The position numbers are program-made. DNA of 42,529 nucleotides. It comes from a virus (taxonomy: Duplodnaviria; Heunggongvirae; Uroviricota; Caudoviricetes). Location of the stretch: the IMG/VR virus record IMGVR_UViG_2718218227_000014. One strand, given 5' to 3'. Shown here in pieces: positions 39,001-42,000 of the stretch. Each line of letters starts with the position of its first letter. The stretch's first letter is position 1.

Positions 39001-42000
39001 GACGATGTCTCTCCAGGCAAAAAATAAGTTAGTGTTGTAAGGGGTATAATCAGAAAAAATCCAGCAAATATGCACATCCCTGCATAAACCTTAAGGTATG
39101 CTGACAGACTCTTCCAGCCGCTTTGTTTTACTATCCCCTTCTTAACCCAAAACAGAGATAACAGAAAAGCTATTCCCATGCTAAACAGAATGTAATAGTG
39201 GGATATACTCTGATTAAGAAACGTGACCCTGTAAATATCTGCCCGCCACCAGAAGAAAAGGAAAATAAAGATCAGGCCTAAAACTGTCATGCAAATCAAA
39301 TAAGGATACGAATCTTTTTTCATGTTTAGCGCCCATAAAATTTTTCCTGCCCCGGACAAATTTACCATCCATTTTTTGCGCAGAAAATAGCTCATTACTT
39401 ACTGCACAATAATACACAAAATTGCGTAAATTTTTTGCATGGATTTTAGCTCTTTCAGCCGACGTTTAAGGGGTAAATAGCATTTCCTAAAAGCAACTGC
39501 ACCAACCCAACAGAATGAGCTACCGCTTACGTTGAGAGCAAAAAAGTGTATAGCAGCAATGAACAGCATCCTCGCACTGACGAGGATTTCTTTTATCTGA
39601 ACTCGCTACGGCGGGTTTTGTTTTATGGAGATGATAAATGCACTTCCGAGTCACAGGTGAATGGAATGGAGAACCATTCAACAGAGTTATCGAAGCAGAG
39701 AACATCAATGACTGCTATGACCACTGGATGATATGGGCGCAGATAGCACATGCAGACATAACCAATATTCGAATTGAAGAACTGAAAGAACACCAAGCCG
39801 CCTGATGGCGGCTTTTTCTTGCGTGTAATTGCGGAGACTTTGCGATGTACTTGACACTTCAGGAGTGGAACGCACGCCAGCGACGCCCAAGAAGCCTTGA
39901 AACAGTTCGTCGATGGGTGCGCGAATGCAGGATATTCCCTCCTCCGGTTAAGGATGGAAGAGAGTATCTGTTCCACGAATCAGCGGTAAAGGTTGACTTA
40001 AATCGACCAGTAACAGGTAGCCTTTTGAAGAGGATCAGAAATGGGAAGAAGGCGAAGTCATGAGCGCCGGGATTTACCCCCTAACCTTTATATAAGAAAC
40101 AATGGATATTACTGCTACAGGGACCCAAGGACGGGTAAAGAGTTTGGTTTAGGCCGAGACAGGAGGATAGCAATCACTGAAGCAATACAGGCCAATATTG
40201 AGTTATTTTCAGGACACAAACACAAGCCTCTGACAGCGAGAATCAACAGTGATAATTCTGTTACGTTACATTCATGGCTTGATCGCTACGAAAAAATCCT
40301 CGCCAGCAGAGGAATCAAGCAGAAGACACTCATAAATTACATGAGCAAAATTAAAGCAATAAGGAGGGGGCTGCCTGATGCTCCACTTGAAGACATCACC
40401 ACAAAAGAAATTGCGGCAATGCTCAATGGATACATAGACGAGGGCAAGGCGGCGTCAGCCAAGTTAATCAGATCAACACTGAGCGATGCATTCCGAGAGG
40501 CAATAGCTGAAGGCCATATAACAACAAACCCGGTCGCTGCCACTCGCGCAGCAAAATCAGAGGTAAGGAGATCAAGACTTACGGCTGACGAATACCTGAA
40601 AATTTATCAAGCAGCAGAATCATCACCATGTTGGCTCAGACTTGCAATGGAACTGGCTGTTGTTACCGGGCAGCGAGTTGGTGATTTATGCGAAATGAAG
40701 TGGTCTGATATCGTAGATGGATATCTTTATGTCGAACAAAGCAAAACAGGCGTAAAAATTGCCATCCCTACAACATTGCATGTTGATGCTCTCGGGATAT
40801 CAATGAAGGAAACACTTGATAAATGCAAAGAGATTCTTGGCGGAGAAACCATAATTGCATCTACTCGTCGTGAACCGCTTTCATCCGGCACAGTATCAAG
40901 GTATTTTATGCGCGCACGAAAAGCATCAGGTCTTTCCTTCGAAGGGGATCCGCCTACCTTTCACGAGTTGCGCAGTTTGTCTGCAAGACTCTATGAGAAG
41001 CAGATAAGCGATAAGTTTGCTCAACATCTTCTCGGGCATAAGTCGGACACCATGGCATCACAGTATCGTGATGACAGAGGCAGGGAGTGGGACAAAATTG
41101 AAATCAAATAATGATTTTATTTTGACTGATAGTGACCTGTTCGTTGCAACAAATTGATAAGCAATGCTTTTTTATAATGCCAACTTAGTATAAAAAAGCA
41201 GACTTCAACGGATTCATTTTTCTATTTCATAGCCCGGAGCAACCTGTGAACACATTTTCAGTTTCCCGTCTGGCGCTGGCATTGGCTTTTGGCGTGACGC
41301 TGACCGCCTGTAGCTCAACACCACCCGATCAACGTCCTTCTGATCAAACTGCGCCTGGTACCTCTTCTCGCCCGATTCTGTCGGCAAAAGAAGCGCAGAA
41401 TTTCGATGCTCAACACTATTTTGCATCCCTGACACCAGGTGCTGCAGCGTGGAATCCGTCCCCGATAACCCTGCCTGCGCAACCTGACTTTGTTGTCGGC
41501 CCGGCGGGTACTCAAGGTGTAACGCATACCACGATTCAGGCGGCGGTAGATGCGGCAATTATCAAGCGCACCAACAAGCGCCAGTATATTGCCGTGATGC
41601 CTGGTGAGTATCAGGGAACGGTGTATGTCCCTGCTGCTCCAGGTGGAATTACTCTGTACGGTACAGGTGAAAAACCGATTGATGTGAAGATTGGGCTTTC
41701 CCTTGATGGGGGCATGAGCCCTGCCGACTGGCGTCACGACGTCAACCCGCGCGGCAAATATATGCCAGGTAAACCAGCGTGGTATATGTACGATAGCTGC
41801 CAGAGCAAACGCAGCGACAGTATCGGTGTTCTGTGTTCTGCGGTCTTCTGGTCACAAAACAATGGCCTGCAACTGCAAAACCTGACCATCGAAAACACGC
41901 TGGGTGATAGCGTAGATGCGGGTAACCATCCGGCGGTGGCACTGCGTACTGACGGTGACCAGGTACAGATTAACAACGTTAACATTCTCGGTCGTCAGAA

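Follow-up and report, generated by a model that had tools for sequence, protein, structure and literature searches.

The window, a stretch of 42,529 nucleotides from a Caudoviricetes virus record (IMGVR_UViG_2718218227_000014), contains at 41108-41203 the attL of a lambda-type integration system, which confirms the observation made in the preliminary description. The integration site is the classical att-lambda in the gal-bio interval of Escherichia coli, and the element between attL and attR is the known effector-carrying prophage of O157:H7 and O55:H7 strains, Sp3/CP-933K (Sp3 of strain Sakai is the CP-933K of strain EDL933). Taking the sequence evidence together, we are highly confident in the joint reading of this region as the lambda/434-type integration junction attL of Sp3/CP-933K, with its sites and the int and xis genes intact and the prophage most likely dormant. 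Textbooks and existing annotation already cover the site, the prophage and where it lies.

In the lambda convention, attL is the int-proximal B-O-P' junction on the gal side, and the consensus sequences for core-type (CAACTTNNT), arm-type and IHF (WATCAANNNNTTR) sites are established in the lambda system. Read against these, the junction contains the following elements, in window order.

~41108 to ~41203, minus strand: attL (B-O-P') as formed by lambda/434-type integration; in lambda orientation it reads GTCTGCTTTTTTATACTAAGTTGGCATTA...AAAATCATTAT.
41108-41117, minus strand: arm-type Int site P'3, from the arm-type consensus scan, overlapping the int stop codon at 41109-41111.
41119-41128, minus strand: arm-type Int site P'2, from the same scan.
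41129-41138, minus strand: arm-type Int site P'1, from the same scan.
41147-41159, minus strand: IHF H' site TATCAATTTGTTG, identical to lambda and fitting the IHF consensus.
41181-41189, plus strand: core-type Int site C', CAACTTAGT, read directly and fitting the core-type consensus.
41185-41199, minus strand: common core O, 15 bp, GCTTTTTTATACTAA, without mismatch and once in the window.
41188-41194: 7-bp overlap TTTATAC, the strand-exchange point inside the core, read from the sequence.
41193-41201, minus strand: core-type Int site B, CTGCTTTTT, read directly, with a host single-nucleotide polymorphism (SNP) just outside it at 41202.
41204-41245, plus strand: host DNA of the ybhC leader, outside the att site and identical to the spacer of a K-12-like empty site.

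The lambda common core of 15 bp, TTAGTATAAAAAAGC in window orientation, has a single exact copy in the window, at 41185-41199. In an ungapped comparison, this core and the 110 bp to its left are identical to lambda attP (J02459) at 125 of 125 positions, and the identical block takes in the 3' end of int, the sites P'1-3, IHF H' and C' of the P' arm, and the core itself. The arm-type consensus scan returned the same three matches for P'1, P'2 and P'3, at the same offsets, as in lambda. Over the 40 bp to the right of the core (after 41199), only 11 positions agree with lambda in the ungapped comparison, which is the chance level. This sharp drop directly after the core indicates that phage homology ends there, as expected of a recombinant junction, and the earlier claim that the P' arm and core match lambda attP is thus borne out. 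The same description had placed attL at 41112-41245; the assignment as attL stands, but those coordinates delimit the whole spacer between int and ybhC, whereas the att site itself runs from ~41108 to ~41203 and 41204-41245 belong to the ybhC leader. The core, the P' arm, the B arm, the partner attR and the adjacent Int and Xis, which are the marks of a lambda-type attL that sequence can test, were all found, and nothing contradicts the identity of the site as attL.

Full containment of the prophage in the window was also considered. A search for a second core inside the window gave only two matches with three mismatches each, at 39120 and 41166, which is the chance level, and a prophage lying wholly inside the window was rejected for want of a second exact core there. 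A tRNA scan of the window returned no match, and a tRNA-targeting integrase site was likewise rejected on that result.

The partner site lies just outside the window and could be located in complete genomes. The window matches E. coli O157 strain 644-PT8 (NZ_CP015831.1, 4153748-4196276) at the same length, with no mismatch over 42,529 bases. In the 45,953-bp locus of this strain, TTAGTATAAAAAAGC occurs exactly twice, both times on the plus strand and thus as a direct repeat, where shuffled sequences lead one to expect none. The second core sits between nleD and ybhB, 1,331-1,345 bp ahead of window position 1, and the distance from the attR core to the attL core is 42,529 bp, a plausible length for a lambdoid prophage. 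Strain 319 likewise has, in the DNA past window position 1, an IS256 remnant, nleD and then ybhB, bioA and bioBFCD, with an exact core in the same orientation between nleD and ybhB. The preliminary description had expected attR beyond position 1, past nleH, had proposed a search upstream for a core bordered by a P arm, and had named the lack of a second core within a plausible prophage length as what would speak against it. The search found two directly repeated cores and no more, at a distance of 42,529 bp; the expected placement was right, although nleD and the IS256 remnant also intervene, and the P arm is the 434 allele and not that of lambda. As observations on the window itself, its two termini fall exactly on the stop codons of nleH1-1 and ybhC, and its length equals the core-to-core distance between attR and attL by coincidence.

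The core of attR (P-O-B') borders a P arm in which P1 and P2 are present and identical to lambda. The arm is 99.5% identical to the attP of phage 434 and 89% identical overall to that of lambda. Its distal 125 bp are identical to lambda base for base and appear to hold the tI/sib hairpin, and this stretch falls under the annotated 'sib retroregulation site' of HK97. At attR, a simple terminator scan missed the tI/sib hairpin, whose loop we read as exceeding the 8-nt limit of the scanner. The core-proximal ~85 bp, the region of the H2, Xis and Fis sites, differ from lambda, and an H2 site fitting the IHF consensus is still present. Given the closer match to the 434 allele (99.5% versus 89% for lambda), the P arm of attR is a natural attP allele of a viable phage with the same core and Int family.

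Both junction flanks align as the two halves of a K-12-like empty site with one SNP. At lambda coordinate -10 (window 41202), T replaces the C of K-12; this SNP lies in the B arm but outside the 9-bp core-type site B, and it is a local host allele. The locus lies between ybhC and ybhB-bioA-bioBFCD in the annotations of 319, 644-PT8 and Sakai, as the preliminary description had it in naming ybhC as the flanking host gene and attλ as the locus; ybhC is so annotated in all matching genomes and finds matches in 5,417 of 5,426 E. coli genomes. A synthetic attB, in which a single core joins the host flanks of the ybhB and ybhC sides, was scored as contiguous where at least 80% of the query was covered in one place. 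It was contiguous in 3,492 of the 5,426 complete E. coli genomes, with the best match 99.9% identical, which again places the junction at the classical locus, and in the genomes sampled among those without a contiguous attB the match breaks at the core. A 60-nt int probe found matches in 2,001 of the same 5,426 genomes, a count that agrees with the ~1,930 genomes lacking a contiguous empty site. The att-lambda site is occupied in about one third of sequenced E. coli.

The DNA next to attL encodes the integration and excision functions. Between 39800 and 42529, the plus strand holds open reading frames (ORFs) of 72 and 356 codons, then a 134-bp spacer and an ORF of 427 codons, which correspond to the following features.

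39819-39832, plus strand: the cII-binding repeat TTGC-N6-TTGC of the int promoter pI, conserved.
39845-40063, plus strand: xis, excisionase of 72 aa, identical to lambda Xis at 71 of 72 residues and annotated as excisionase in matching genomes.
40041-41111, plus strand: int, an intact lambda-family tyrosine recombinase of 356 aa, identical to lambda Int at 353 of 356 residues.
41246-42529, plus strand: host gene ybhC, which borders att-lambda on the gal side and is so annotated in matching genomes.

All six catalytic residues of Int are kept (R212, K235, H308, R311, H333 and Y342); its substitutions relative to lambda are H164P, A245T and I248V. The stretch 39760-39845, which covers the cII box of pI, is identical to lambda at 85 of 86 positions. 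Directly before this box, at 39795-39814 and 30 bp upstream of xis, there is a strong bidirectional hairpin terminator (8 pairs, 6 of them G-C, followed by a T-run) that is nearly identical to that of lambda. Because the prophage encodes no N protein, this hairpin would stop read-through into xis and int. A promoter scan of 39400-41400 gave one weak match, inside int (41071-41098), fewer than in shuffled sequences. Further upstream of xis, a 200-aa ORF on the minus strand (38793-39395), annotated as hypothetical, is predicted to encode a multi-pass membrane protein.

Among described phages, the block from xis through int and P' to the core is 99.9% identical to 2B8, 99.0% identical to 434 and HK97, and 98.2% identical to lambda, and an attP core is annotated under the match in several of these phage records. 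Lambda (J02459, core at 27724-27738) shares the core, C', H' and P'1-3, nearly all residues of Int and Xis, the host site between ybhC and ybhB, and the cII box of pI; it differs in the core-proximal ~85 bp of the attR P arm (89% for the P-arm probe) and in the B-arm SNP at -10. Phage 434 (M60848, OL657226), which has the same core, a P arm at 99.5% and an int-xis-P' segment at 99.0%, is the closest described viable-phage allele of the whole att module. In contrast to the prophage studied here, which is without immunity, replication and pL regions, 434 is complete and inducible and has an immunity region of its own.

The Sakai copy of int is disrupted by a 4-bp deletion at about window 40102-40105, which causes a frameshift; that copy is annotated as a pseudogene. 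Direct alignment indicates that the window is without this deletion, and the Sakai-based view that the int of Sp3 is disrupted was therefore rejected for this strain. With the 60-nt int probe, which samples E. coli generally and not O157 alone, 1,715 records carried the intact allele and 208 the deletion (90-95% identity band); among the matches listed, those with the deletion were at 93.3% identity and of O157:H7 type.

The content of the element is that of Sp3/CP-933K. It is lambdoid, occupies att-lambda, carries nleB2, nleC, nleH1-1 and nleD, and is without an immunity and replication region, on which the gene tables agree. The left end of the window, with nleH1-1, nleC and nleB2, finds 100% matches in many O157:H7 and O55:H7 genomes, and its effector genes lie as follows.

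1-882, minus strand: nleH1-1, a type III effector gene at the tail-fibre end of the prophage.
1709-2728, minus strand: nleC, a type III effector gene.
2762-3742, minus strand: nleB2, a type III effector gene.

Remnants of a tail-fibre assembly gene and of a YkgJ-like gene lie between the effector genes in 1-3742, and nleD with a remnant of an IS256 transposase follows just beyond the window, before attR. The Sakai annotation gives 'prophage Sp3, lambda-like phage' at NC_002695.2 891124-929709, between ybhC and ybhB, and the copy studied here has the same insertion site, gene order, nleB2-nleC-nleH1-1-nleD cassette and bet'-ninE deletion; only a single indel separates the two in the att and int region. 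The two copies differ in that int is a pseudogene in Sakai and intact here, and in that the Sakai copy measures 38,586 bp with no IS629 annotated, whereas the copy studied here measures 42,529 bp from core to core and has three IS629.

The prophage is degraded at several points. According to the annotation of matching genomes, the segment pL-N-cI-cro-cII-O-P is missing; bet is truncated at its N terminus (annotated remnant at ~36279-36950) and abuts the oppositely oriented ninE (36067-36249), a deletion common to Sakai and strain 319. The portal gene (~22881-24462) is split into two ORFs (1,125 bp and 336 bp) in 319 and 644-PT8 and is partly a pseudogene in Sakai, which is a further defect of the prophage. 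Three copies of IS629/IS1203 of 1,310 bp each (4942-6251, 14177-15486 and 31238-32547) break the tail-fibre gene (inverted copy), the tape-measure gene and the gene for antiterminator Q. The copy in strain 319 shares the tape-measure insertion, and the window differs from it by two extra IS629 and one substitution, with no other difference. The junction of Q with IS629 occurs in only 2 of the 5,426 complete E. coli genomes, 644-PT8 and 180-PT54. As for other cargo, lpxR, encoding lipid A 3'-O-deacylase, lies on the opposite strand at ~33454-34413, between the region of pphA and a truncated antiterminator and Q. The tail-fibre ORF at 4190-4909 (minus strand) holds a long collagen-like Gly-X-Y repeat tract; collagen-like proteins in the prophages of pathogenic E. 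coli are the subject of a published paper (PMC3368898).

These features are best explained by the integration of a lambda/434-type phage between ybhC and ybhB, at the attB of E. coli. On this account, a lambda-family Int cut and swapped strands within the TTTATAC overlap of the shared 15-bp core, an exchange that set P'-arm DNA (three arm-type sites, one IHF site and C') on one side and the host B arm with ybhC on the other. The partner attR (P-O-B') lies 42,529 bp away, beside ybhB and 1.3 kb beyond the window. The attL should in principle be a competent substrate for excision by Int, Xis and IHF (with Fis). The int and xis genes would be left without their native switch, with pL, N, cI, cro, cII, O and P gone and three IS629 present. 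Since the cII box of pI stands without cII, pL and N are deleted and a terminator lies upstream of xis, native expression of int and xis would not be expected. With pL, N, cI, cII, O and P missing and three IS629 inserted, the junction, although competent in principle, is probably dormant, and the prophage itself has most likely settled into a fixed, dormant state.

Two alternatives concern the identity of the site. The region might be a secondary or cryptic att-like sequence that resembles attL by chance or in part, with no true junction. The core is A/T-rich and look-alikes with three mismatches occur at chance level, and nothing further points this way, whereas the complete attP identity over 125 bp with a break exactly at the core end, the second exact core with its P arm at the other prophage end, where shuffles expect none, and the reconstruction of the empty site have already refuted this reading, to which we assign next to no probability. 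The junction might instead be attR, or a different site, with the locus or orientation wrongly assigned. The window does show the prophage reversed relative to the conventional lambda map, which could confuse the naming, but int and the P' arm adjoin ybhC on the gal side and the P arm adjoins ybhB-bioA, so that an exchange of the two names is likewise exceedingly improbable.

A more serious alternative is that the site looks like attL and cannot recombine, the cause being an Int inactivated by H164P, A245T and I248V, the SNP in the B arm, or a complete lack of int and xis expression. The prophage would then be permanently fixed; we rate the probability of this alternative at slightly below even. 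The loss of pL, N and cII and the hairpin terminator upstream of xis speak for it, as do published data on the Sakai copy. Asadulghani et al. (2009) classed the int of Sakai Sp3 as disrupted, predicted excision to be impossible and saw no circularisation (PMC2669165), and Shaaban et al. (2016) listed SP3 among the 'fixed' prophages that are highly conserved across O157 strains (PMC5359411). However, the Sakai data are confounded by the 4-bp frameshift in int, which is absent here, and because of that frameshift the failure of Sakai Sp3 to circularise says nothing direct about the intact allele. The cis sites are all 100% lambda-like, the catalytic residues of Int are intact, and at the nucleotide level the module shares 99.0% identity with 434 and HK97, both viable phages, and 99.9% with 2B8. 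Moreover, this alternative concerns the activity of the site and not its identity.

Read as the lambda/434-type attL of a most likely dormant Sp3/CP-933K, the junction fixes the left boundary of this effector prophage, which matters mainly for correct annotation. The window stops 1.3 kb short of the right boundary, and nleD and attR are consequently absent from it. Unlike the Sakai reference, this strain keeps its integration and excision module wholly intact, which bears on the movement of the effector cassette between strains. The label of a fixed prophage stems from Sakai, with its frameshifted int; here the genes int and xis, the cII box of pI, attL and attR are all intact, as int is in most carriers of this int allele, and the cassette might therefore still excise. 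It is an unlikely but conceivable prospect that the immobility of Sp3 is strain-specific and that lineages with an intact int might still mobilise the four-effector cassette (nleB2, nleC, nleH1-1 and nleD) with help in trans, such as cII-like activation from a co-resident lambdoid prophage, or after read-through. If this were true, the immobility of Sp3 would be a feature of strains with the Sakai frameshift and not a general one.
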